DNA of 64,000 nucleotides from a virus (lineage: Duplodnaviria; Caudoviricetes), in IMG/VR virus record IMGVR_UViG_3300042673_001351, positions 18,597 to 82,596 of that record, one strand, 5' to 3'. Made by a program: the position numbers and the translations under genes. The notes under the pieces are model-generated. The model worked only from the letters and a program-made list of their open reading frames with translations, was not told the DNA's origin and searched no databases. Below, in pieces: positions 5,855 to 42,729 of the stretch; position 1 is the stretch's first letter; the number at the start of each line of letters is the position of its first letter.

Positions 5855-6560
5855 ATTCCCTTATTATTTTTTTAATAGTTTTTTTATCTGCATATACTTC
5901 TATATCAAATAAATACGAACCTCTTTTTATTAACCCGCAAATATTGTCTTCCATATGATTTTTAGAGTTTGTAAAATAAAAATCAACAAAGTTTGCTTCT
6001 TTTATTATAACATTTTCATCTGTTTTTGTAAAAGAATCTTTTTTTTCAATTATTTTTAGTGAAGGATTTTCTATATTGCATTTAATTAAATACTGTATGT
6101 CCATGTCTAAAAACCAAGGAATATAAATTTTAAAAATTCTTTTAGAAATTGCATTTTCATCTACAATATTATATTGATTTTCTGATGGGTAAAATTGACG
6201 TAGCCAGCATTTATCGGTTGCATAAAAAAAACTATTAATTGGATTTGATTTGAATACCCCCCTATGCCCTAGCAACGGATCAGCTGTTTGAATTAATATA
6301 TCCCCGTAGCTATAATATCTAATTGTTAAACTATTTTTAGAATTCTTTATTATCTCTGGCGGGTTAGAAAAATGATGGGCATACATGTTTACTGGTTTTA
6401 GAATTGATTGTTTATAGGCAGGATCAGATTTAACATATTCCCATTCTTTCCACTTTGGAAACAAATTAGAGGTATGACATATTTGTTCAAAAGTCATTGT
6501 TGACATTAGAGACCAAGATTCCGCTTCATAGGGCACTCTATTAACTGTCTTATTGGTCAT
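5832..6560 (-). CDS. Hypothetical protein
   Basis: 242-aa ORF overlapping both neighbours in the operon. Confidence 0.6.
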   Translation of the reverse strand: MTNKTVNRVPYEAESWSLMSTMTFEQICHTSNLFPKWKEWEYVKSDPAYKQSILKPVNMYAHHFSNPPEIIKNSKNSLTIRYYSYGDILIQTADPLLGHRGVFKSNPINSFFYATDKCWLRQFYPSENQYNIVDENAISKRIFKIYIPWFLDMDIQYLIKCNIENPSLKIIEKKDSFTKTDENVIIKEANFVDFYFTNSKNHMEDNICGLIKRGSYLFDIEVYADKKTIKKIIREYEKRINS

Positions 6561-17485: not shown

Positions 17486-18853
17486 TTAGCCTATTACTAC
17501 TACTTTGTATTCTCCTGATGCAGGTGCTACTGCAAATTTAATAGTTACGGCAGATGCAGATGTTAATTCTACGTCTGTCTCAACTTTAGCATATGGAGAA
17601 GCTGCTTGCGAAACCTGTACTAAAACATCAGTTGAACCCAAGTTATGAGTAACTGTGTATGATGTTGCTACTGAGTTTAATGTCTCGACATACTTTCTAG
17701 TTATTGCATGATAGTTAGTTCCATCATTTGTAACTGTCCATTTATCTGAGGACTCGTTCCATAGAATTTCAACATCTGTTTCGCTGCCTCGCTCTACACG
17801 AATTCCAGCGTCTGCTACTGGTGCTCCAGTAAAGTCAGTATTAAGATTAATCTTATTATCAACAATGTTTACCTGGGTCGTATTTACAGAGTTAACTGTT
17901 CCTGTAACATTTAAGTTGCCACCCACAAGAAGATTGCCAGTAATTGTTACGTCATCTGGAAGCCCAATTGTTACTGCTGAATTTTCTGATCCTGAACCAG
18001 AAACTGTAATTTCATTTGCTGTTCCAGCAATTGTTGCAATATAGTTACCAGTTGTTTGTGTTGCAAGATTAACATTTTTAATACTTACTGCGCCATCTGT
18101 GACGGTAAAGTCTGCGTCTGCAAATGAAGCAACACCACGATTTGTAGTTGTTGCAATTTCTGCATCTACTGTTAGGGTTCCTGCTGTATCATCGTATGAT
18201 ACATCAATGCCTTCTCCAGCAACAATTTGTGAAGAAACAATATCTTGTACACGCTCAGCATTTAATGTTACTGCGCCTGCTGCTACGGTAAAGTCTATGG
18301 CATCAAAACTTGCAACACCTTTATTAGATGAAGTTGCGTCTTCTGCTGATACTGTAATTGTGTTGTTTGTTACGGCAACGTCAATTCCTTCTCCACCTGC
18401 AACGGTTAATGTATCGGTTAATAAATCAACTGTGTCTGTTCCAGTGTCTCCAGCAATTGAAAGATTAGTTGCTACGTTTACTGTTCCTGCTGCAGTCAAA
18501 CGACCTTGTGCGTCTACTGTAAATGTAGGAATTGCTGTTGTAGATCCGTATGATCCAGCTGTTACTGATGTGTCATCTAAATCAATTACTGTTGTTCCTG
18601 TTGAGTCTGTATACGTTGCGGTTAAGCCAGTGCCACCAGAAACGTATGCACCAATAGCATCTTGAATTACTTCTAGGGAGCCAGATGTTGGGATCCAGGT
18701 TGTTCCGTCATAAAAGTATACAATTTTATCTACTGTGTTAAAATATATTTGACCTTCTACTGGGCTTGAAGGCGCAGTACTAAGGTTTTGAATTCGAGCA
18801 TTTTGTAATTCATTTTTGTTAAGGTCTAAGCTAACTAAAAATTTTCTTGCCAT
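17486..18853 (-). CDS. Tail fibre/structural protein
   Basis: PSSPVEGQIYFN, AGSYG...TVDAQGRLT, VTHNLG. Confidence 0.7.
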   Translation of the reverse strand: MARKFLVSLDLNKNELQNARIQNLSTAPSSPVEGQIYFNTVDKIVYFYDGTTWIPTSGSLEVIQDAIGAYVSGGTGLTATYTDSTGTTVIDLDDTSVTAGSYGSTTAIPTFTVDAQGRLTAAGTVNVATNLSIAGDTGTDTVDLLTDTLTVAGGEGIDVAVTNNTITVSAEDATSSNKGVASFDAIDFTVAAGAVTLNAERVQDIVSSQIVAGEGIDVSYDDTAGTLTVDAEIATTTNRGVASFADADFTVTDGAVSIKNVNLATQTTGNYIATIAGTANEITVSGSGSENSAVTIGLPDDVTITGNLLVGGNLNVTGTVNSVNTTQVNIVDNKINLNTDFTGAPVADAGIRVERGSETDVEILWNESSDKWTVTNDGTNYHAITRKYVETLNSVATSYTVTHNLGSTDVLVQVSQAASPYAKVETDVELTSASAVTIKFAVAPASGEYKVVVIG

Positions 18854-30935: not shown

Positions 30936-31063
30936 TAATAAAGTATATCATTATATAATCCTAGTCGACTAATATATTCATATTTACCAAAATGTTAATA
31001 ATATTTTATTATGTATGATACACACATTTAAAATGTCCGATTTGTCCAGATAGAGCGACCATA

Positions 31064-31079
31064 TGTGAGGAGTATCACA
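31064..31079. promoter_or_regulatory. Perfect CRP/GlxR-type box
   Basis: TGTGA-GGAGTA-TCACA. Confidence 0.55.
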
Positions 31080-31183
31080 CGATTATTGAAAATATCTTCA
31101 TGATTTTTGCGACACGCCGAGCCATAACCCCTAAAATGTCAGTCCCCCATGTTAGGATTATAGTATAACAAAATAAAGAATTA

Positions 31184-31237
31184 GAGCGTGAGCCTAGCAA
31201 ATAATCCCGAAAGGGTGAGCCTAGCAAATAACCGCTC
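31184..31237 (+). repeat. 17-bp direct repeat inside a symmetric stem structure
   Basis: GTGAGCCTAGCAAATAA at 31188 and 31215, flanking CCC-GAAA-GGG and enclosed by GAGCG/CGCTC. Confidence 0.75.
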
Positions 31238-31258
31238 AACCTAACGAAAGGAAATAAA

Positions 31259-32326
31259 ATGAACGATTACCTAGATTACCTAGATGATATCTACGAGGAA
31301 TTAGTAGATGAGTTTGGACATGAGGCAGAAGCCGAGTGTGTCCATAATCACACCGCTAAATAAAGCGTGTCGTGTTGATAATGTCAGTCAGTAATGATAG
31401 TCTTACCTTAATGAACAACCTAACGAAAGAAGGACAGAAAATGGATAAACTAAACGAGGCACTAGAAGCCTTACAACAAGCAAACAAAGTGTTTGCTGAA
31501 ATGTTCGACATAGACGAGAGCGAGGCTAACTAATGTTATTTTTTGATTGGGTAGAGGATTATCCTCACATTGTTTTGCCTATCGTGTTAGGCACGATAAC
31601 TATAATTGCTATTGTCGGTGCTATTGTTAGTGGAGGTAATAACTAATGAAACTAACCTACTCAATTTGGCAAGGCTCTTTACAAAAGGGCACACTAACCG
31701 CTAAGAGCATTAAAGAAATTACTGCTCTAGTTAATGAATTAAACGAGGCAAACCCTCCGTTAAAATTCGAATACCTAATACACAAGATAGAGCAGGTGAA
31801 TAACTAATGATGACTAAATGGGACACTATCCAAGCGGACATAGCAGACGCTTACACCTACTTAGACGAGGCGGAGGTATTGGATAAACACAATACAGAAG
31901 CCCTATTTGATGAGGACATGATTAGCATGGACGAGGTAATTGAAAATGAATTAACACTAGATTGGGAGGCATACGAATAATGAACTTAGAATTATTTATA
32001 GATAGCGAATACTTTTCTCTATATATTAACGGGCTATGGCCTAATGGTGTCGGTATAGATATCCCGACATGGCTACTAGTTGGCTCTATTGCTTTTATTT
32101 ATTCTATCGTATTACTTAGGAGAGATAAATGAAATCACAATTCGAAAAGGATTTAGAATTAAAGGAAAGCTTCTGCCAGATGTTAGATGAGATTTATCCT
32201 ACTTATAAAATCGGAGTATCAACATTCACCGCCAGCGAAATCTTAGAGTGTTGCGATCCGATTGCGTTCTCTATTGGTTTAATTGAGCATGAGGAATATA
32301 TGCGTGAGGAAGGTCACATAGACTAG
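31259..32326 (+). CDS. Chain of seven micro-ORFs (31259-31363, 31441-31533, 31533-31646, 31646-31807, 31807-31980, 31980-32132, 32129-32326)
   Basis: Hand translation; TAATG/ATGA stop-start coupling; AACGAAAG RBS; several are very acidic and two are hydrophobic. Confidence 0.65.
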
Positions 32327-32562
32327 ACGGCGTGTCGCCTTGACAAAAGGCGGAAGCGCCCACAAAAGCTGTGGGGGCAAAATGTGATTTAAGACACATT
32401 TTAAAAAAACCCTGAAATTTGCGGCGTGTCGATTTGACACGATTTTTGTGATTAAGAACACATGACTTGAGCGTCTCAAAATGTGGAATTACTGGCTAGT
32501 AGGTAGAGAATTGTCGGTGGCTTCCGCTATAATTGCGGTATAACGAAAGGAAGTGGCTAACA

Positions 32563-32877
32563 ATGGCTAACTTATACACAATACAAGATTTACTAATTGG
32601 TAAAATCTATAACTCAAAAACTCTGCGTGGAGAAATTATCTCAGCAGATAAATCAGATATTTTTTATGAAAATGCTGAAGGATATTTGGTTCAGGTTAAA
32701 TCTGATACTGGTAAATATACTTACCGAAATATAGCAGTTAAGGTTGGTGAGTAAATGGGATACATAGAAATTTTTAGATTAGATGAGCAGGGTGCTGGCT
32801 GGGTAGATTTATCTCAAGCCACCCCGCAAGAATTACTAGATTTAGAAATCGGATTATTTCAGGAAGGTGCGCTCTAG
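32563..32877 (+). CDS. Two small hypothetical proteins (32563-32754, 32755-32877)
   Basis: Follow a TGTC promoter and an AACGAAAGGA RBS. Confidence 0.6.
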
Positions 32878-32948
32878 GGCGTGTCTATCCCGAAATTGTC
32901 GGTGGCTTAGGCTATAATTACATTAACAACAACGAAAGGAAAACTAAA

Positions 32949-33468
32949 GTGGGAAATATACTAGAAATACTTGCCGTATCTTGTGATGAGTGTGGCGGTG
33001 CTGGCTTCATATTTTGGGGCGATGAAAACAATTACGATGTAGAGAGTTGCGATTGCGCTCTAGAAATATGGGGTATCTAATGTATAGACTAGATACTTAC
33101 TATGATGGCGAATTAGAATATACATTTCAATTCGCTGACGCATTACAAGCCTTTGAGGCTTTCGCAAAATGTTATGATGTTGGATTTGCTAATGAATTCG
33201 CAACATATAATTTATCTATGCCAAATGGCAAAATGTATACTAAAAACTTTAATCGGATTGGATTGGTGTCGCAGAAATGATGACCCGTAAAGATTATATT
33301 GCTACTGCTGAAATTATGAAATATGTTTCAGATAAAACTCACCCTGCTTTATTTTCTAAAGTAGTTGTGGATTTTGCTTTAATGTTTGCGAAAGATAATC
33401 CTAAGTTTGACGCTAACAAATTTTATAGCGCAAGCGGTTATCGTATTCCGCAATTTAATTCTAAATAA
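32949..33468 (+). CDS. Three small proteins (32949-33080 CxxCxGxG zinc finger; 33080-33280; 33277-33468)
   Basis: Coupled ORFs after promoter and RBS; CDECGGAG. Confidence 0.6.
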
Positions 33469-33634
33469 ACGGCGTGGCGTCTTGACAAAGGCGCCAGCTG
33501 CGCCCACAAACCCTGTGGGGGCGTTTTGTGATTTAAGACACATGCACAAAATCCCCTGGATTTTGTGGCGTGTCGATTAGGTAATGTCGTAGGCCTCTGT
33601 TATAATTCTTATCCAACCAACGAAAGGTCAACTC

Positions 33635-33790
33635 ATGAACGATATTAACTCATGCTACTGTACTAACTATTCTATTTGCACAATTTGTGCCCGTGGCTAT
33701 TCTAGCGAAGGCATGGCCGTGTATGATCGTGATCTAGCGCAAGATTGGGCCATGTCAAGAATGGCTGATGCAGAAATGGGGGACCTATGA
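33635..33790 (+). CDS. Small Cys-rich protein (51 aa)
   Basis: MNDINSCYCTNYSICTICARG...; RBS; overlaps the next start. Confidence 0.55.
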   Translation: MNDINSCYCTNYSICTICARGYSSEGMAVYDRDLAQDWAMSRMADAEMGDL

Positions 33791-34539
33791 TGTCAGACGT
33801 AGCTGATACAATTCCACTTATGTTAAAAAGATCTAATGATCGCAAGGTTACTAACCTTGTATCTAAAAATGGCAAGACTTCTGCCATTGCTAATACTTTC
33901 GGCCTGCCTGCGGGTAAGGAATTCTCATGCCCTGGCGCTACTAGCATATGCGAAAGCGTATGCTATGCGGGTAAGTTAGAAAAAGTATATAAAGGCGTTA
34001 GAGACGTGCTCATTCACAATTGGAATTTACTTAAGGACGCCGACGAGCCTACTATGGTGGACCTAATAGAAAATATGATTAATGATTTTAGAAAAGATTG
34101 TGAAAAGAAAAATGCTAAGTTATTATTCCGTATTCATTGGGACGGAGATTTCTTTAATGATACCTATGCACGTGCATGGCAATATGTTATTTTAAACAAT
34201 ACCGATATTCAATTTTGGGTGTATACACGAGTTAAGTCTGCAGCGCTCATCCTAGACGGTATTGAAAACTTATCTCTTTATTATTCAACGGATGATGAGA
34301 ATAAAGATATAGCGCATGATCTACGCAAGACTGGTACTAAAATTAGATTGGCCTACTTAGGTAAAACCTTTGCCGTTACCGAAAATACTATGAAAGAATT
34401 AATTGGTAAGCCTGGCGCCAAATGTCCTGAAAATAATAAAAGCATTCCGTTAATTTCCACTAGTGGCAGCGCATGCGTGTCGTGTGGATTGTGTGTTTAT
34501 GGAAAAGCTGATATAAGATTTTCTGCAAGTAAAAAATAA
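33787..34539 (+). CDS. Phage Gp88-like protein with Cys cluster
   Basis: FGLPAG...SCPGATSICESVCYA...RIHWDGDF...FWVYTR...CP...CVSCGLC. Confidence 0.7.
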   Translation: MMSDVADTIPLMLKRSNDRKVTNLVSKNGKTSAIANTFGLPAGKEFSCPGATSICESVCYAGKLEKVYKGVRDVLIHNWNLLKDADEPTMVDLIENMINDFRKDCEKKNAKLLFRIHWDGDFFNDTYARAWQYVILNNTDIQFWVYTRVKSAALILDGIENLSLYYSTDDENKDIAHDLRKTGTKIRLAYLGKTFAVTENTMKELIGKPGAKCPENNKSIPLISTSGSACVSCGLCVYGKADIRFSASKK

Positions 34540-34799
34540 ATGGCAGCAACTTTAGGACAAATTTTTGGGGCCCTAATAGGGTTGGTATTAGTGGCCCCAT
34601 TCATAATTTTTATGTATATATCTCTTAGAAGATTTGATGTTGATCGAGACGGGACTAATGATTACTAAAAGGCGCCCACAAAGCTGCGGGGTCGGGCGTG
34701 TCGTTAAGGGTGTGATACAAATCACCCTGGAAAATACAGGCGTGTCTTAAAAAATGTCAGTTAAGTCTGCTATAATTCCAATCTAACGAAAGGAAAACA

Positions 34800-35069
34800 A
34801 TGGGATATAACACAGCGTCAGACTTAGCAGAGAGTTTTGACTTAGACCAAGCAATTCTACTTCATCTAAGAGGTAATCATTACCCACCCGTTCCATCATC
34901 TATGGTAGCACCATGTATTGATGCTATTGATGCTTATTATGCTGATGAACTTAATCAGTTAATTAAACTGCCTGAAGGAGTATTGTGGAAAGGCAAGCCT
35001 GAAGCCCCTGCCTATGCGATTATAGAGGCTCATCATCTACAAGCGTTTTTACCTGAAACCGACTTCTAA
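34800..35069 (+). CDS. Hypothetical phage protein
   Basis: HLRGNHYPPVP; promoter and RBS. Confidence 0.65.
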   Translation: MGYNTASDLAESFDLDQAILLHLRGNHYPPVPSSMVAPCIDAIDAYYADELNQLIKLPEGVLWKGKPEAPAYAIIEAHHLQAFLPETDF

Positions 35070-35115
35070 TTGTCGGTGGCTGGTGCTATAATAAACCCCT
35101 AACGAAAGGAAACAA

Positions 35116-35256
35116 ATGGAAATCGGAACAACATACACAACCACCACAAGTGGTATTACTGGAGTTATCAAAGCAATAGATAACCACCCAAGCGGAGTTA
35201 ATCGTATTCTGCTTGATGTAAATGGAACAGACCGCTGGACAAGCGTTAAAGCATAA
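35116..35256 (+). CDS. Small hypothetical protein (46 aa)
   Basis: Promoter and AACGAAAGGA RBS; MEIGTTYTTTTSGITG... Confidence 0.6.
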   Translation: MEIGTTYTTTTSGITGVIKAIDNHPSGVNRILLDVNGTDRWTSVKA

Positions 35257-35288
35257 CAAACCAACCCACCTAACGAAAGGAAACACAA

Positions 35289-35711
35289 ATGGCAAGAGGC
35301 AAAGCAATACAGGTAAAAATCGCAACAACTAAGGTTATCAAAGCCTTAGAAGTAAGATTAGCCAAACTAGAGGCTGATTACACAAAGCAAGACGAAAACG
35401 AAGCCAAATACCAAAAGGCTTTAGAGAAGTGGCGTAAGGAAATTGGCAAGTGGGCTATTGCTAATTTTACTAAATCAGAAAACCTACGCACCAACTATCG
35501 TCAATGGAACAAAACTCTCAATGTTGATTTTGATATAATTATTGACGAGAAAGATTTTCCTGCTGAACCAACTAAGGACTACGAGCAACTACATCAGCAC
35601 TCTTATCGTGAGATGAAAGATGAGATGGAAAATGCTATTCGTATTCTTAAAATGACCGATGAGGAAACTGTAAATGCTTCCACATACAACGCTATTGCTC
35701 GTTATCTTTAA
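35289..35711 (+). CDS. Hypothetical coiled-coil protein
   Basis: AACGAAAGGA RBS. Confidence 0.65.
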   Translation: MARGKAIQVKIATTKVIKALEVRLAKLEADYTKQDENEAKYQKALEKWRKEIGKWAIANFTKSENLRTNYRQWNKTLNVDFDIIIDEKDFPAEPTKDYEQLHQHSYREMKDEMENAIRILKMTDEETVNASTYNAIARYL

Positions 35712-35720
35712 TTAGATAAT

Positions 35721-35765
35721 CATAAGGGTGGGTGCGTGGGCGATAGACAACACCCACCCCTTATG
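35721..35765. terminator. Long hairpin
   Basis: cataagggtgggtg ... cacccaccccttatg. Confidence 0.5.
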
Positions 35766-35799
35766 GTATAATTTTTATCCCTACTAACAAAGGAACACA

Positions 35800-36012
35800 A
35801 TGCGGTATCGTGTAGAAATCTATGATGCTAATAAAGCTCATGATCTAACAATTTATTCTGCAAACAGTTACAACCGTGAATCATTAACTAAACTGGTTAA
35901 ACCTAATTTAAGCAAATTTGAAGGCAACGTTAAAGCATATGTTGTTGATACACAAGACAACAAAAAAGTATTTGCTGCATTCTTTCCAGAAGAGATACAA
36001 AACTCAATCTAA
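35800..36012 (+). CDS. Hypothetical protein
   Basis: TGG-TATAAT and AAAGGA RBS. Confidence 0.6.
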   Translation: MRYRVEIYDANKAHDLTIYSANSYNRESLTKLVKPNLSKFEGNVKAYVVDTQDNKKVFAAFFPEEIQNSI

Positions 36013-36189
36013 TAATCTTGGGCCAGGCTTTTATGTTCTCCTGGCCCATCTTCCCCTGCGCCCAAGCTTGAAGGCTTATCCACAACGTTACGGCAGCCTG
36101 TGGAAAACCCCCAAAATTTATGTCAAATAAGATAGACAATGTCAGTGCCCCCTGTTATAATAAACCTAACAAACAAACGAAAGGATAAA

Positions 36190-37197
36190 ATGGCTCATAA
36201 TCTCGAAGAGCAAGATGGTCAAGTAGCATTTGCGCTGCGTGGCGCTCCTGCTTGGCATAATCTTGCAAATCGCATTTTCGCTCAAGATGAAAATGTAACT
36301 ACCGCAACAATGCTTGAAGAAGCAAAGTTAAATAACTGGAATGTCCGCTTGTCGGATGTTGCAGATCATATCCCAAGCACATGGAGAAATACATCAGATA
36401 ATTTCTATGTGATTCGTGATAACCCGTTTGATCAAGGCACTGATGTTTTATCAGTTGTTGGCAAGCGTTACAAAACCGTTCAGAATGAAGAGTTATTTGC
36501 ATTTGCTGATAACGTTCTGGACAATGATGCTGCAAAATGGGAATCTGCTGGCTCAATTAAAAAGGGCAAAGTTGTATTCGGCTCATTAGATATTCCACGT
36601 GAAATCGTATTAGACCCACAAGGTATTAACGATAAAACTAAGTTATATCTAATTGTATGGACATCTCACGACGGTTCAGTTGCAGTTCAAGCAGCAATCA
36701 CACCCGTTCGTGTTGTATGCCAAAACACTCTTAATCTTGCAATGAAGGGCGCTAAGCAATCATTCAAGATTCGTCATACACAAACTGCTGAAGGCAGAAT
36801 TGTGCAAGCCCGTCAAGCATTGGGATTAACATTTGCATATGCAGATGCATTCCAAAAGGAAGCGGAAGAATTATTCAAGCAATCAGTTACCGATAAGCAA
36901 TTTTCGGATTTGATTCGCAATCTATATCCAAAGCCTGAAGCAGATGTTAAGGGCGCTTTAAAGAAGTGGGAGAATAAGGTTGTTCTAATTGATGACCTTT
37001 ATCATAACTCACCTACCAATAACACAATTAAAGGTACTGCTTGGGGTGCGTTTAATGCATTGACTGAGCGTTTAGATTATTACCGTACCGCCCGTACTGG
37101 TAATACTGAATCGCTAAATGCTGGTGCAAGTGGATTCGATCCAATACTAACTGCAGAGAAGAATAAAATTCTTAAAGCAGTTAAAGCGTTAGCCTAA
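36190..37197 (+). CDS. DUF932-family phage/plasmid protein
   Basis: MAHNL...PAWH...VVGKRY..VQN...ESAGS...SHDGS...TPVRVVCQNTL...IRHT...GTAWGAFNA. Confidence 0.8.
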   Translation: MAHNLEEQDGQVAFALRGAPAWHNLANRIFAQDENVTTATMLEEAKLNNWNVRLSDVADHIPSTWRNTSDNFYVIRDNPFDQGTDVLSVVGKRYKTVQNEELFAFADNVLDNDAAKWESAGSIKKGKVVFGSLDIPREIVLDPQGINDKTKLYLIVWTSHDGSVAVQAAITPVRVVCQNTLNLAMKGAKQSFKIRHTQTAEGRIVQARQALGLTFAYADAFQKEAEELFKQSVTDKQFSDLIRNLYPKPEADVKGALKKWENKVVLIDDLYHNSPTNNTIKGTAWGAFNALTERLDYYRTARTGNTESLNAGASGFDPILTAEKNKILKAVKALA

Positions 37198-37202
37198 ATA
37201 AA

Positions 37203-37222
37203 TGGGGCCCGAAAGGGCCCCA
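37203..37222 (+). other. GNRA-capped hairpin immediately 5' of the tRNA
   Basis: tggggccc-gaaa-gggcccca. Confidence 0.6.
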
Positions 37223-37227
37223 CCATT

Positions 37228-37301
37228 GGCCCATTAGCTCAGTTGGTTAGAGCGCTACCCTGTCACGGTAGAGGTCGACGGTTCAAGTCCGTTATGGGTC
37301 G
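37228..37301 (+). tRNA. tRNA-Asp(GTC), CCA not encoded
   Basis: Acceptor GGCCCAT/ATGGGTC, D arm, anticodon stem CTACC/GGTAG with loop CTGTCAC, GTTCAAG T-loop. Confidence 0.92.
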
Positions 37302-37421
37302 CAACGCCCCCAAAGCTAAAGGCAGGATTTTTTTCTTACGACAGGCATAATATTTTCCCCGAAATCCTTGTAATTGTCAGTTGGCACTGATACAATTGCG
37401 CTATTCAACGAAAGGAATAAT

Positions 37422-38180
37422 ATGCCTAACTGGGTGTATAACACATTAACAATACAAGGTCCAAAGTCTGAGATAGATTTTATCAAAGATAAACTTAACG
37501 AGCCATTTATGGTATGGCACGATAGTTGGAATTCTGAAACTATGCAAATGGAAGTAACTGAATCTACCTATTCTAATCCTGTCTTTGCATTTTGGAATAT
37601 ACATTCTCCATTACAAGACGGTATTACAATGCAAGAATATATTCAACAACCTACACGACTAGGAACAGACACGAGTGCACCTGACTGGTTTGCTAAAGAA
37701 GTAGCACATGCCATGACACAAAAAGATTGGTATTCATGGAATACAACTAACTGGGGAACTAAATGGGATGTTGCAATATCAGACGGAGAGAAGTATCCTG
37801 ATACTGAGTTGCTTGAATATAAATCAGAGGGTGATGATAACTGGTTGGTATATAAATATAATACTGCTTGGTCACCTGCTGTAACTATCTTAACTAAACT
37901 AAGTAATCTTATTCCTAACTCTCTACTAACCCTTGAATTTGAGGAGGAGACAGGTTGGGGTGGCGAATATGAGATTGTCCGTGGTGAAGTTAAAGAAAAT
38001 CTAGAATATACCAATATGTGCTATGCCTGCCAATCCCATGACACAATAGATTATTGTGAAGAGGGATGTGGGGAATTCTGTTCATCTTGCAAAGAAGGCT
38101 CTTGGATAGACGAAGAGGCTATGGCGCAATGTCAGACCCATAAGGTATACTTAACCACTACCAAAACGAAAGGAATATAA
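37422..38180 (+). CDS. DUF1281/YubB ferredoxin-like family protein
   Basis: MPNW...WYSWN..NWGTKWD...YNTAWSP; C-terminal Cys cluster. Confidence 0.7.
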   Translation: MPNWVYNTLTIQGPKSEIDFIKDKLNEPFMVWHDSWNSETMQMEVTESTYSNPVFAFWNIHSPLQDGITMQEYIQQPTRLGTDTSAPDWFAKEVAHAMTQKDWYSWNTTNWGTKWDVAISDGEKYPDTELLEYKSEGDDNWLVYKYNTAWSPAVTILTKLSNLIPNSLLTLEFEEETGWGGEYEIVRGEVKENLEYTNMCYACQSHDTIDYCEEGCGEFCSSCKEGSWIDEEAMAQCQTHKVYLTTTKTKGI

Positions 38181-39615
38181 TGTTAGACAACTTAGAAACA
38201 TCAATGTCAGTACCTCACGAGTATAACTCTAATCTACTTGTAACCTACAAGAAGATTGCAGGAACTTATGCAGCACCTGAAGCACCTGAATATATTACTC
38301 AGAAAGTAGTTGACTTAGAGTGGGCCCTTGAACAAGGTCGCCGTGCTGATGATTTATACAATGGCCTTAGACTTAAGGTTAATGAGTTAGAAGAACTTCT
38401 AGTTGAATTGTATAATCCTAATTATACAAAAGAGGAAGCGCTTCAACAAATAGCAGAACTGTTTGACTTTGAATTATCAAAGACAGTTACAGTAACTGGA
38501 ACTATTAACTTTGAAGTAACAGTTCAAGTACCACTTGATGAGATTGATAACTTTGATGCTCATTACAAACTCGGAGATGAACTTTCATTAACATCGTATG
38601 GCAGCGAAGTTGAAGTAAATGATTGGTCAATCGAAGATACAAATGTGGATTGGGACTAATGTACTTTGAACTTACTGCTCCGAACCAGGTAGCCTTTAAG
38701 CGGGCTATCTGGGAAGCGGACATAACTGGATTAGATCCACAAGAAATGGATTCATTGACTTTCAACATTGGAACTGGTAGTATTGAGAAGGTAAGTCGCA
38801 TTCGTGATAAATATAATTTAAAAGAAACTTATTTATCTCAATTCGAACCAACTGGATACTCAAGGAGAATATAATGTCAGATTACAGAGATGGATTTCAA
38901 GACGGGTATAAATTTGCTCGTGAAGAGATCATTGATAAACTAAGAGAAATTGATATCTCTGACATTGACGGGTTCTTATTAGATAAACTATCTGACATGA
39001 TTGAAGGTAACAAGATATGAGCGAATGGATTAAATGTGATGTTTGTCCAGCTCAGGCAATGCACCTTGTTAGAGGAACCACTGGCGAGCTGACATTTTGT
39101 GGCCACCATTACAATAAAGACAAAGAGGCCCTAGACAAATGGGGCTATGAGATGATAGAATTAAATAAAAAGGAAGAAACACCTCAACTAGAAAAGGCGG
39201 AAATATAATGGGAGACAGAGCAAACTTTGGATTCGTCCAACCTAACGGAAACACAATTGTGTTATACGGCCACTGGGCTGGACACAATATGCTTGGAAAA
39301 CTAGCAGACGCTGTCATTAAGGCACGTCCTCGCTGGAATGATGGTTCATATGCAACACGTATCGCAATCAGTCAAATGGTTGCAGATGAATGGAATATGG
39401 AAACTGGATGGGGACTATACGTAAATGAGATTGGCGATAATGAGCACAAGATTGCTATCGTTGATTTTAAGCAACAGACATTTAGTCTTCACGAGTGGGC
39501 CCCACACAATGACTTAGACAACAAAGTCCTAGGGATGAATAACAATCCAATATTTACAATGGATTTATCAGTCTTCTGCGAGAAGTATGCAATGGAAAAC
39601 ATCCTAGTCGTCTAG
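38180..39615 (+). CDS. Five coupled hypothetical ORFs (38180-38659, 38659-38874, 38874-39020, 39017-39208 CxxC/CxxH finger, 39208-39615)
   Basis: TAATG/ATGA coupling; CDVC...FCGHH. Confidence 0.6.
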
Positions 39616-39918
39616 CATGATATAATATTAATAGGCCATGGTGCCTATTATATGAAGGGTGCATCTACTCTAGGTGCTAAGTAAAGCAGGTTTTTCCTTT
39701 CGTTGAGGTCCTAGCAGCCCTTCTCTTAACCCCCGTGACTCTAAGCATGGGGGTTTAGCTTTGCCCCCAAAAGCGGAGGGTAGCATATGTTGTTTACGGA
39801 AGTCAAATATATTTCCCTGAAATCTCAAGCTTTGGACATGTGGTGTGAAACACACCTATATTCTATATACAATGTCGGTGGTCTGTTATATAATTAAGGT
39901 CCTAGCGAAAGGAATATA

Positions 39919-41063
39919 ATGCCTGAACTATTTATAGATACTGTAGCAGAGCACATTACAGGTGCAATGCAACAGGAAATAGCAGAACAATTGTTTGAAG
40001 ATTGGTCTAATAAGAATCTAGATGAAGGTGCTGAATATGCTGAATATGAATTCATGCAATATGCCTCACCTGAATTAAAGCAAGAATATAATAAGTTCTA
40101 TTCTTACATTGAGGGAAATGAGTATTATCTATGTTAGGTTATACATATAAAGATATACAGAACTTTGGTAATAGTTTAACTGTTGCTATTGATTCCGCTT
40201 CCGACCCTGATGTTAAGCAAGGTCTATTAACCATATGGGATTTTTTCGAGGGCCTACTAGCAGAAGGGTATATAGATGAGAACACTTACTACGGATAAGT
40301 TAATAGAATATATGAATATTCATTTAATTAGTCTTAACCAGGATATGGATAAAGATTTGAATGTTGAATCTAAGATCAATATCCAAGGACAAATTATGGC
40401 TATAGAACATCTACTGGAGTATGCTAATGAGTTATAAGGATACTCTATTGGAACCCCACCTACAAAAATTAGTTGACCTGGGAGAATCAGGTACTGATAT
40501 CATGCATGGTCACATGAAGAATCTAATGTATGAATGTGAAACAAAACTATTAGACATATCTGAATTACAGGATATGCCTGAATATAAATATCTTTCAGGA
40601 CGTATGGACGCATTGACAGAAATATACATTATGACGTATAATTTAGCCTTCGCCATAAACGAAAGGACTGTATCTCGTGGATGATTTGCAATATGACAGA
40701 GGCCAAAAAGTTAAAATGCAATTGGACCAAATTGTCAATACCTTAAATAGCGTTGATGTAGCCATGTCATTAATATGGGTATGGGCATGGGATTTAATTA
40801 GAGATAAGTATCAGTCTCATGAATTTATTACTGAGGGTTCTGAGTATGTAGTTAGTACTGGAGTTACCTTAGATGTTATATGGAATAAACTTTGGGAAAG
40901 CCCGCCCTCCGATTTTACCCTGGAGTACGGGGCAGACCAAATGGACGAGGCTGTAATGGATTGGATGATTGATAACAACTTCCTTACCCTCCTAGATGAT
41001 GATGATTGGTTAAACGAGAGTTCTGACGTGGAGTCAGATGATGTACAACTTAATATGGAATGA
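39919..41063 (+). CDS. Cluster of small acidic hypothetical proteins (incl. 39919-40137, 40421-40684, 40677-41063)
   Basis: ORF track; promoter at 39873; RBS motifs. Confidence 0.55.
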
Positions 41064-41114
41064 AGGAACTAGGCTTCAAGGCGGAGCTCAGGGCAATTAG
41101 AAAGAGGATCTACA

Positions 41115-41255
41115 ATGGCAACAAAGCGTGAATATCTAAAGTCAAAAGGCATTACAGTGGGCGTCCGTGGACGTTTCTCAGGTGCCGCTAAGCAAGCTCT
41201 GTCAGAGGCAGAGAAGAACGGCGTAAAGTTTACAGCTGAGGTAAAGACTAAGTAA
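41115..41255 (+). CDS. 46-aa Lsr2-like DNA-binding peptide
   Basis: MATKREYLKSKGITVGVRGRFSGAA resembles the Lsr2 C-terminal REWAxxNGxxVSxRGRI motif; AGAGGA RBS. Confidence 0.55.
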   Translation: MATKREYLKSKGITVGVRGRFSGAAKQALSEAEKNGVKFTAEVKTK

Positions 41256-41349
41256 ACTAACTAACATTGGGTAGGGTCTGTACTGTCCTAACGCTATTGA
41301 CCTTACCCAACCTAGTATGATAAAATGACGGAGATTAGAAAAGGCGGAT

Positions 41350-41813
41350 ATGGCAAAAAGAATACAAGAAGAAAAGATAGCAGAAGCATTAGCAGAGGCA
41401 GTAGATAACAATTGGTTTAATCCTACATTGTGCGCTGACCTAATTGTTAATCACATGCCGCTATATACTCAAGACCGACTAATGATTTTAATATCAGAGG
41501 TCATAAGGCAACAAGCCTTGAGGTTTGAAACTGAGTGGGAGCATGGCTATACATCTGACGGCTTAATGCTATCAAGTCATTTGGCTGAAGTAATAGAGGC
41601 TCATCAACGAGGTCTGGATATCTAATGACCAAGCCTGTAGGAGCCAAGCAGCGCAAGCCTAGATCAGGTGGACGGGACAGGAATCATGCCCTTGCAGCTT
41701 TTAGAAAAGTAAAGCGGGCAGAGAAAAGAAAGAAGTCCCAATTCCAAGAGTACTATGAATCAATGTGTGGTCCAGTAACTATAACATATAAAGAAGTAAA
41801 TTTAAATAAGTAA
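41350..41813 (+). CDS. Two hypothetical proteins (41350-41625; 41625-41813, basic)
   Basis: ORF track; TAATG coupling. Confidence 0.55.
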
Positions 41814-42337
41814 ACATCTGGGACATGTGATCGATTTGTACATGTATGTACATTTTGATATACATTGTCCCATTTGTTATATCTGAGTAAGGGCAGAATT
41901 TCTTCTTTACGACAAGCTATAAAAAATCCCTGAAAATCTAGGATAATCTAATATAAATGTATATTAATCTTATTAAACATATATAGAATCTATTAAAATA
42001 TATATAAAATGTGGGCAAATTTTCCTATTTACGAGACATGTTTCTATATCCTGGAATACATTATATGATCACATTTGGATAACATTTGGCTCAAAGCTCT
42101 TGACAATATGGCTATTATATGCCATGTGGGTCAAAGTGGAGCATTACGGGGAGTTGTGGGGGATCGCTCAATTACATGTATATCTATCTGAGTATATATC
42201 GATAACATTTACGTTATAATTAATAGTATTTACTTTGGTAGATATGATGTAGATATGGCTCTAAAAAGGCTTTAAAGGGGGTTTATAGAGATGTATATGA
42301 GAGGGGGGAAGCTAGGATATGGAGCATATTTTAGCCA

Positions 42338-42511
42338 TTAGTATGGAGTTTCTCCAGACTCTTTGGCTATGGCTATTTGCTCTCTTTGCCATGTATGTAG
42401 TATATCGATCTGATTCTGAGTATATAGACATTGAGTACATAGTGAATATACGAGATCACCTTTAGTATATAGATATAGATCCTTATTGAGATTACATACG
42501 TTACAGGTCAC
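42338..42511 (-). CDS. Small CxxC...CxxC protein (57 aa)
   Basis: GTG start overlapping the upstream TGA; MTCNVC...LCTQC. Confidence 0.5.
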   Translation of the reverse strand: MTCNVCNLNKDLYLYTKGDLVYSLCTQCLYTQNQIDILHTWQREQIAIAKESGETPY

Positions 42512-42729
42512 TTCAGCTTCCGCCTTTTATTTGATTTCTTCTTAGGATATATAAAGTCTATGTAATCATTTCCTTTGGCCCAAGCTTTCTTCCTACTTAC
42601 AAATATAGCTTGTGATCTAGCTCCCAAAGAATTTTCATAATACCATAATCCAGTATTCTCATCTTTACCTACCTTGACCCATTTTTTTATAGGCTCTTTA
42701 CTTATAAAGTCTGTTCCCACACTAGTCAT
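42508..42729 (-). CDS. Hypothetical protein
   Basis: ORF track; AGGCGG RBS. Confidence 0.5.
   Translation of the reverse strand: MTSVGTDFISKEPIKKWVKVGKDENTGLWYYENSLGARSQAIFVSRKKAWAKGNDYIDFIYPKKKSNKRRKLK

Follow-up and report, generated by a model that had tools for sequence, protein, structure and literature searches.

In a 64,000-nucleotide stretch of a tailed virus (Caudoviricetes; positions 18,597 to 82,596 of IMG/VR record IMGVR_UViG_3300042673_001351), eight intergenic sites carry an element of three short blocks, TGNGGG(C/G), (T)TTACG(A), and AAAAnCCCTGAAA. Below, this stretch is called the window, and positions are those of the window. The blocks stand at fixed distances, point in the direction of the surrounding genes, recur in the same arrangement in related phages, and share no RNA fold. 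We propose that this three-block signal is a second, non-housekeeping class of promoter with -35/-10 geometry, a reading to which we assign a probability of roughly 40%. An earlier note on this DNA had described the eight copies and their spacing; the locked direction of transcription, the one-base tolerance in spacing, the -35/-10 geometry, and the identity of the RGG block as one arm of a hairpin are additions to it. Literature searches found no published description of the motif.

A three-block element with fixed spacing and direction

The arrangement was examined in relatives, for which we used the best 80 of 164 related IMG/VR stretches found with the DUF932 protein (71 to 100% identity; 1.29 Mb). 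Across these 80 loci, all 238 matches to TTAMG-N16-CCCYGRA lie on the gene strand. A gap of 15 gives 104 matches, a gap of 17 gives 4, a gap of 18 gives 1, gaps of 8 and 24 give 2 each, and the remaining gaps between 8 and 25 give none, so that gaps 16 and 15 together amount to 342 matches on the gene strand and 0 on the opposite one. The spacing reported in the earlier note is thus kept in related phages, with a tolerance of one base. Taken alone, CCCTGAAA, a form of the right-hand block, is found 273 times on the gene strand versus 7 times on the other. Five complete relatives contain 26 matches to the motif versus 1 for a backwards control, and in each of these genomes the matches occupy one strand only and one block of 4.4 to 10.3 kb.

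The same result was obtained at a position chosen independently of the motif. When loci were picked by protein alone (n = 79) and the 330 nt before the DUF932 gene were searched with at most one substitution, the motif was present in 75 of 79 slots and exact in 47, while its reverse complement and a shuffled version were present in 0 of 79 each. Distinct upstream regions carried it in 48 of 51 cases. A regular expression with two substitutions matched 79 of 79 loci, which was too loose, and it was replaced by the one-substitution test with controls. A wider DNA scan of viral contigs returned at least 121 stretches, in which chance and true matches are mixed.

Within the record itself, genes run almost entirely on the - strand, apart from a block of about 30 small genes on the + strand at 31137-41813, referred to here as the island. 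Together the eight copies span about 9.7 kb (32358-42056) of the 82.6-kb record. When 71 distinct instances from relatives, none of them from the window, were made into a weight matrix, a search of both strands of the record returned exactly these eight, at 23.4 to 46.3 bits. Three shuffled genomes reached 14.1 bits at most, and the next real scores are 13.9 and 11.2, leaving no ninth copy. The earlier note had staked the element on its frequency relative to shuffled sequence and to the rest of the genome: TTAMG-N16-CCCYGRAA with at most one mismatch matches 7 times in the window, all on the + strand, versus a mean of 0.49 in dinucleotide shuffles, of which 0 of 100 reach 7, and there is no excess elsewhere in the genome. 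The exact core occurs six times in the whole record, always on the + strand and always within window positions 32389-41935.

Both a check of the sequence and the relatives-only matrix bear out the eight copies and their geometry as first described. RGG (GGG or AGG) begins 16 nt upstream of TTAMG in all eight, a GCCC block starts 30 to 31 nt upstream in the first six, and CCC follows after a gap of 16 in seven copies and of 15 in the last, whose right block has one mismatch. The six internal copies each sit between the end of a gene and a TGTC...TATAAT promoter, and the last two follow the final + strand gene. The copies are as follows.

Copy 1: 32358..32417, + strand; hairpin GCCCACA..TGTGGGGGC (-13.6 kcal/mol), TTAAG at 32389, CCCTGAAA at 32410; 45.8 bits. 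The palindrome TGTGATTTAAGACACA spans TTAAG.
Copy 2: 33502..33561, + strand; hairpin, TTAAG at 33533, CCCTGGAT at 33554; 42.9 bits. The hairpin (33503-33519) is followed by a T-rich tail and is listed as terminator-like.
Copy 3: 34674..34732, + strand; hairpin, GGCGTGTCG abutting TTAAG at 34704, TGTGATACAAATCACC in the right spacer, then CCCTGGAA; 35.0 bits.
Copy 4: 36058..36116, + strand; the slot before the DUF932 gene; TTACG at 36088, right block CCCCAAAA (one mismatch); 29.1 bits. A perfect DnaA box (36076-36084, + strand) and a near-box (36099-36107, - strand) lie on either side of TTACG.
Copy 5: 37306..37364, + strand; directly after tRNA-Asp (37228-37302); TTACG at 37336, CCCCGAAA at 37357; 27.6 bits. 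TTGTAA of the next promoter lies 3 nt downstream.
Copy 6: 39763..39822, + strand; hairpin GCCCCCAAAAGCGGAGGG (-9.5 kcal/mol), TTACG at 39794, CCCTGAAA at 39815; 32.4 bits.
Copy 7, first closing copy: 41888..41935, + strand; TAAGGGC block without a 5' hairpin arm, TTACG at 41907, CCCTGAAA at 41928; 46.3 bits, the top weight-matrix score of the genome.
Copy 8, second closing copy: 42010..42056, + strand; TGTGGGC block, TTACG at 42029, gap of 15, right block TCCTGGAA; 23.4 bits (gap shift of -1).

Conservation extends beyond the columns used in the search pattern. Among 128 dereplicated copies, numbered from TTAMG, there is T/G at -19/-18, GGG at -16 to -14 (108 to 120 of 128), C or G at -13, CCC at -29 to -27 (79 to 92), AAA at +16 to +18 (100 to 119), and A at +28 (106). 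The upstream columns pair as a GC hairpin, GCCCNC..GNGGG, whose variable base is altered in both arms. Folding energies below -5 kcal/mol were obtained for 114 of 173 upstream segments, and the RGG block forms the 3' arm in about two thirds of copies. Only one of the six hairpins in the window has a T-rich tail, and the closing copies retain TGNGGGC without the 5' arm. At the downstream edge comes a pyrimidine-rich run from +29 to +33; beyond it, position +35 is G in 52% of the 89 palindrome-free copies, compared with a genome frequency of about 18% for G (35.6% G+C). Two other promoter layouts were considered for these columns and set aside: an extended -10 (TGn plus AATTTn), for which position +32 is unconserved, and a leftward promoter on the opposite strand (TTTCAG-18-CGTAAA), which would run into the hairpin and against the genes.

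Beyond this upstream hairpin, the copies have no fold in common. Complementarity between the spacers was no greater within copies than between them, whether as minimum free energy (-8.55 vs -8.03, p = 0.84) or as the duplex energy of left and right spacers (-9.13 vs -8.24 kcal/mol, p = 0.26). For 134 diverse copies, RNAalifold returned 0 consensus pairs. A search of Rfam gave no family for the element; only tRNA-Asp passes, and two weak matches nearby fall well short of their gathering scores. Where inverted sites fill both spacers, and only there, strong hairpins form with TTACG in the loop (to -19 kcal/mol). A hairpin spanning the whole element is ruled out by the spacer pairing test and RNAalifold. 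Given the lack of a shared fold, the element is probably read by a protein on duplex DNA, in keeping with the earlier proposal of a multi-contact site on DNA rather than an RNA structure.

Gene context and contents of the spacers

Elements follow genes and precede promoters. Of 191 distinct copies, 165 come after a + strand open reading frame (ORF) of at least 50 amino acids ending within 220 nt, and 7 come after another copy. Among the 19 others, the 14 that we viewed lie mostly after short ORFs, tRNA genes, or a degenerate copy, with the exception of one (locus L023, 3008) that lacks the GGG block and lies downstream of AT-rich non-coding DNA. On the downstream side, a TGTC-box promoter precedes the next ribosome-binding site in 173 of 251 instances, no ribosome-binding site is found within 400 nt in 64, and a ribosome-binding site follows directly in 14. 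Three gene-proximal examples of these direct cases were inspected, and in each the element stands before a small gene, with TTGACA in the spacer and TATAAT or GATAAAAT after it. The companion promoters and the region in which the island ends are listed here.

Companion promoter class: 32512..32533, + strand; an aaTGTC(A/G)GT box exactly 16 nt before a TATAAT-like hexamer.
Other TGTC boxes: 31137, 31382, 32897, 33585, 34755, 35071, 36140, 37375, 38130, and 39873.
Closing region: 41814..42337, no strand; an AT-rich non-coding stretch of about 500 bp where two gene blocks converge, holding copies 7 and 8.

Each of the 11 TGTC-box promoters is followed by ACGAAAGGA and a start codon, and their -35 hexamers are weak to fair (TAGACA, TTGTAA, TTGATA). 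The TGTC box itself, aaTGTC(A/G)GT(GG), sits at about -28, too close for a -35, and so looks like an operator or activator box in the spacer. Its layout presumably resembles that of T4 MotA boxes, and its letters what we take to be the L5 stoperator. The first promoters of the island, at 31137 and 31382, have a palindrome and a GGCGTGTC site and no element.

The island is closed by two to three copies that no gene follows, in tandem at a spacing of 48 to 56 bp or 122 to 170 bp. In the counterpart of this region in locus L043 (16150-16660), the closing copies are closely preceded by four DnaA boxes; the closing region of the window has one DnaA near-box only. The two regions also share a block, GGGGGA..CTAGGATATGGAGC. 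Such a region could be an origin or a non-coding RNA locus. Some closing copies, together with copies that in relatives precede a small gene with an RGR motif, overlap TTGACA-17/18-TA(C/T)AAT in a fixed register, which indicates that promoters are tolerated there even when no gene follows.

The spacers had been described as freely varying, and this part of the earlier description does not hold. They are specific to each slot, the content of a slot is conserved across relatives, and many contain recognizable sites, such as DnaA boxes and TGTGA-N6-NCACA palindromes. Counted over the 134 diverse copies, DnaA-box-like 9-mers (at most one mismatch) occupy both spacers in 33, TGTG..CACA spans TTAMG in 23, GGCGTGTC abuts TTAMG in 17 and stands right after the motif in 21, TTGACA is in the right spacer in 12, and a TGTGA-N6-YCAC palindrome lies immediately 3' of the motif in 41. 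A separate count over relatives and window found the palindrome in 61 copies, starting 2 to 5 nt past the motif in 59 and most often at 4 nt (34); where a following -10 hexamer was found, it lay 65 to 71 nt further along in 44 of 55. In 74 of 79 loci, the slot before DUF932 contains two or more DnaA boxes, with a perfect one among them. Of the copies in the window, only copy 4 has such boxes, and over the window as a whole DnaA boxes show no enrichment (23 vs 22.5 expected); TGTGA-N6-NCACA palindromes lie in copies 1 to 3 (32383, 33527, 34711).

Similar sites also occur around the elements. CRP-type palindromes, TGTGA-N6-TCACA with at most one mismatch, are enriched in the window (9 vs 2.56 expected); seven of them lie where the island starts, at 31064-34726, and in relatives a near-perfect palindrome of this type stands at a fixed distance after the element. 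GGCGTGTC(G) occurs at 31117 on the - strand and at 31365, 32330, 32424, 32879, 33472, 33568, 34696, and 34740 on the + strand, surrounding the first three elements and also preceding promoters. One relative (locus L002, about 6240-6280) has three tandem copies of GGCGTGTC with a period of about 10 to 11 bp. The complement of GGCGTGTC contains GACAC, which we take to be the WhiA motif.

A proposed second promoter class and the alternatives

The element is the core of a reiterated cassette, which begins with the GC hairpin that closes the prior unit and continues through the three-block signal and putative host-type regulator sites to the TGTC-box/TATAAT promoter and the ribosome-binding site. 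If the element is a promoter, TTACGA would act as the -35, separated by 17 bp, or by 16 bp in about 30% of copies, from CTGAAA (-12 to -7), which, preceded by CC (-14/-13) and an A-run, would act as an extended -10. Transcription would then start about 7 nt downstream of the -10-like block, where G is enriched, and TGNGGG(C/G), at about -54 to -48, may serve as an upstream contact. The reader would be RNA polymerase with a putative specificity factor, either an alternative sigma of the host or an early phage protein that redirects the host enzyme, and each module could be re-expressed at a time or in a host state different from that served by the TATAAT promoters. Spacers and start region may provide sockets for DnaA boxes, TGTGA-N6-TCACA, and GGCGTGTC, by which modules would be gated separately. 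The tandem closing copies would fire into the AT-rich stretch, perhaps priming or activating replication.

Several properties of the element argue for this proposal. Expressed as hexamers, TTACGA and CTGAAA are separated by 17 bp in 238 instances, 16 bp in 104, 18 bp in 4, and 19 bp in 1, and a one-base tolerance in the spacer is typical of sigma-70-family promoters. Together with two unlike half-sites about 22 bp apart and a locked direction, this tolerance fits recognition by a sigma-70-family holoenzyme. By analogy, the embedded regulator sites would occupy the operator-like positions of known promoters. Phage middle or alternative promoter classes include the MotA-dependent middle promoters of T4 and the gp28 promoters of SPO1, and the element resembles these in being an oriented two-block signal with fixed spacing, placed in early intergenic gaps in tandem with housekeeping-type promoters. 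T4 origins use middle promoters, and here too copies lie beside a putative unwinding region. The element differs from the T4 and SPO1 promoters in having a third, upstream block, in never being the sole promoter, in a -10-like block, CCCTGAAA, that is G+C-rich at its 5' side, and in that no cognate sigma or appropriator was found for it.

A number of observations weigh against a promoter. The hexamers match poorly, TTACGA in 3 of 6 positions to TTGACA and CTGAAA in 2 of 6 to TATAAT, which makes the housekeeping sigma an unlikely reader, and a promoter consensus scan lists none of the eight copies. Nor does the element ever stand as the only promoter, since 173 of 251 instances are paired with a TGTC promoter and the three inspected direct cases overlap housekeeping-type ones; the first promoters of the island do without it. 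Its placement after genes suits a stop signal equally well or better, its fixed phase relative to the 3' arm of the hairpin is needless for a promoter, and tandem copies close the island. Searches for a reader were negative, with no Sigma70_r2 in a six-frame search of five complete relatives, no sigma family among the submitted phage ORFs in Pfam and NCBIfam, and no other candidate from Pfam, PHROGs, and NCBIfam scans of those ORFs. Finally, 401 Actinomycetia genomes, the host not among them, gave 10 matches versus 10 for the control, which is no enrichment, and the single match inspected lies inside an ORF.

The after-gene placement leads to a possible, if tentative, alternative, that of a polar stop or insulator, in which a sequence-specific DNA-binding protein of phage or host, bound to the three blocks just past the U-poor GC hairpin, would stall polymerase and the hairpin would release the transcript. 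Modules would rely on their own TGTC/TATAAT promoters, and the closing copies would shield the converging gene block. Besides that placement, the absence of elements at the start of the island speaks for it, as do the hairpin 3' arm fixed at -19 to -13, the scarcity of T-rich tails, the restart promoter that so often follows, and the two to three geneless copies that close the island; two RNA contigs of run X18 that end inside elements 5 and 6, at 37325 and 39802 (respectively 11 nt upstream and 8 nt downstream of the T of TTACG), offer a weak hint. A stop of this kind would be stoperator-like, in a lytic programme. Stoperators are single blocks of about 13 bp, distributed genome-wide and bound by the immunity repressor of temperate phages. 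Excerpts of PMC9283540 describe those of cluster A mycobacteriophages as oriented with transcription. The element shares their orientation lock, asymmetry, multiplicity, and preference for short intergenic gaps in an actinobacterial phage; unlike them, it consists of three blocks over about 48 bp and is confined to a 10-kb island. No Phage_integrase or Resolvase was found in the record and four complete relatives, which makes an immunity-repressor version of the stop site unlikely. Further points against a stop are that a roadblock protein with two unlike half-sites about 22 bp apart and a one-base tolerance has no precedent known to us, that regulator sites within the spacers go unexplained, that the boundary at 35712-35772 has a hairpin and a promoter without an element, and that family scans of the submitted ORFs found no candidate protein.

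Other readings have less to recommend them. It is unlikely that the copies form an array for a replication initiator, DNA entry, or organization of the genome, whether like iterons or like T5, with the closing copies as the working site and the internal ones as auxiliaries. Tandem closing copies beside AT-rich non-coding DNA would suit such an array, as would the four upstream DnaA boxes of L043, the DnaA boxes that flank TTACG in 74 of 79 DUF932 slots, and the replication genes of relatives, which come without a recognizable initiator among the Pfam matches in the roughly 32 kb missing from this record. Excerpts of bioRxiv 10.1101/866236 place eight ordered DnaA boxes in the untranslated repeats of the T5 injection-stop region, and on that account untranslated repeats in a first-expressed region, interleaved with ordered DnaA boxes, are common to both; in T5 they form one large untranslated region in the long terminal repeat, whereas here they are dispersed one per module among genes that are not T5-like. 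Six of the eight copies are also spread over 10 kb with one per intergenic gap, unlike origin iterons, DnaA boxes in the window are no more frequent than expected, and the lock to gene direction is unexplained. The reported direct terminal repeat of relative G001 is an exact 127-bp overlap, an assembly artifact, and so marks no physical genome end. Promoter-early stem-loop (PeSL) cassettes of T4-type phages were the comparison drawn in the earlier suggestion that the elements are recombinational module boundaries. That they are primarily such boundaries, with blocks kept because they mediate shuffling of early modules, we regard as very improbable. Part of the case stood: gene content between elements varies (each stretch is covered by about 10 to 80 of the 80 loci), the cassette pairs a stem-loop with an early promoter, and ends of BLAST homology blocks are twice as frequent within 60 nt of elements as expected under uniformity (209 vs 104, counted over seven element positions, with 42029 left out). 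However, element-free boundaries (35200, 38100, 38600, 41100) are equally rich in ends, and the copies share only blocks of 5 to 8 bp between diverged spacers, a poor substrate for homologous exchange, so that any role in shuffling would be secondary. Slot-specific spacers kept across relatives point instead to vertical descent with selection on function. Both systems have a reiterated stem-loop and early promoter punctuating a gene-variable early region of small ORFs, but the element differs from PeSL in placing the stem-loop first, in its extra three-block signal between stem-loop and promoter, in copies that share short blocks only around slot-specific spacers, and in a weak link to breakpoints. 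We give next to no credence to an RNA element in the 3' tail of each module, acting in processing, stability, or antitermination. Elements do lie downstream of co-directional genes and may therefore be transcribed, and a subset has strong hairpins with TTACG in the loop; against this stand the blank fold tests, and exact spacing across unpaired, unconserved spacers is not expected of single-stranded RNA. A small remainder of belief is reserved for readings outside those named here.

The promoter and stop readings could also be parts of a wider scheme, about which we are doubtful, in which the three blocks are a portable scaffold for a non-canonical specificity subunit of host RNA polymerase or a polar stop protein. 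Spacers and downstream edge would offer sockets for DnaA, a CRP-like protein, and a GGCGTGTC binder, early modules of a lytic phage of abundant lake Actinobacteria would be gated separately on the replication and energy state of the host, and the same scaffold would be used at the origin-like region. Identification of the reader would reveal a promoter specificity not seen before or else a factor-assisted terminator of a new kind, and the embedded DnaA and CRP-like sites suggest that host physiology is tied directly to early phage expression. These phages recur in lake metagenomes. The strongly conserved element provides a concrete handle on their transcription programme, and the cassette could be used as a marker when annotating early regions of uncultured actinobacterial phages.

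Phage lineage and neighboring genes

The record comprises 82,596 bp at 35.6% G+C and is 76% complete according to CheckV. Its gene content is that of a tailed actinobacterial phage, with WhiB, the mycobacteriophage GP88 family, DUF932, and DUF7455. Structural and lysis genes include a portal, a prohead protease, collagen-like fibers, an endolysin, and a tape-measure-like protein of 2126 amino acids, and metabolic genes are numerous (P450, catalase, acyl-ACP desaturase, ribonucleotide reductase, thioredoxin, AdoMet decarboxylase). Complete relatives measure 111 to 120 kb. About 32 kb is absent from the record, and in relative G001 this portion encodes Pol III alpha, DnaB, DnaG, RecA, RuvC, and large unknown proteins. 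The stretch is contained in lake and freshwater metagenome DNA runs from 11 studies. With neither integrase or resolvase nor Sigma70_r2 found in the genomes searched, the lineage looks like a lytic, lake-dwelling actinobacterial siphovirus that depends on host RNA polymerase.

Host searches with the ribonucleotide reductase matched, among genome contigs, only phage-like ones binned into unrelated metagenome-assembled genomes, and the catalase gave no relative. Two isolated phages of Planktophila, described in excerpts of PMC10202952, have genomes of 39 kb with 44.8 and 44.7% G+C and encode both WhiB and a sigma-70 factor; on this description they are a different lineage. In actinobacterial phages more generally, one parallel as a repeated short motif is the 17-bp palindromic repeat of cluster O mycobacteriophages, which according to excerpts of PMC4351075 is also present tens of times, often in intergenic positions, and has no known reader. 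That repeat is symmetric, free in orientation, and genome-wide, while the element is asymmetric, gapped, oriented, and confined to the island.

Three further features of the island deserve mention. The gene with the RGR motif (41115-41255, + strand) encodes a 46-amino-acid protein with ..GVRGRFS.. and no family match, presumably resembling the DNA-binding end of Lsr2; in three relatives the element, overlapping a TTGACA/TATAAT promoter, directly precedes it. A coiled-coil-like protein of 140 amino acids (35289-35711, + strand), present in 76 to 78 of the 80 related loci, matched no family, and an Atlas search gave only hypothetical viral clusters. Its stretch had the highest contig depth (about 30) in three of four metatranscriptome runs, which were compared with 31000-42600 as contigs, so that molecule ends are unreadable. 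Bins that contain elements were covered little or not at all, which carries no weight as evidence. Directly after this gene, at 35712-35772, a hairpin with a 13-bp stem (ATAAGGGTGGGTG..CACCCACCCCTTAT) encloses the -35 of a TAGACA-17-TATAAT promoter at a boundary without an element, and terminator and promoter are here fused in one structure.

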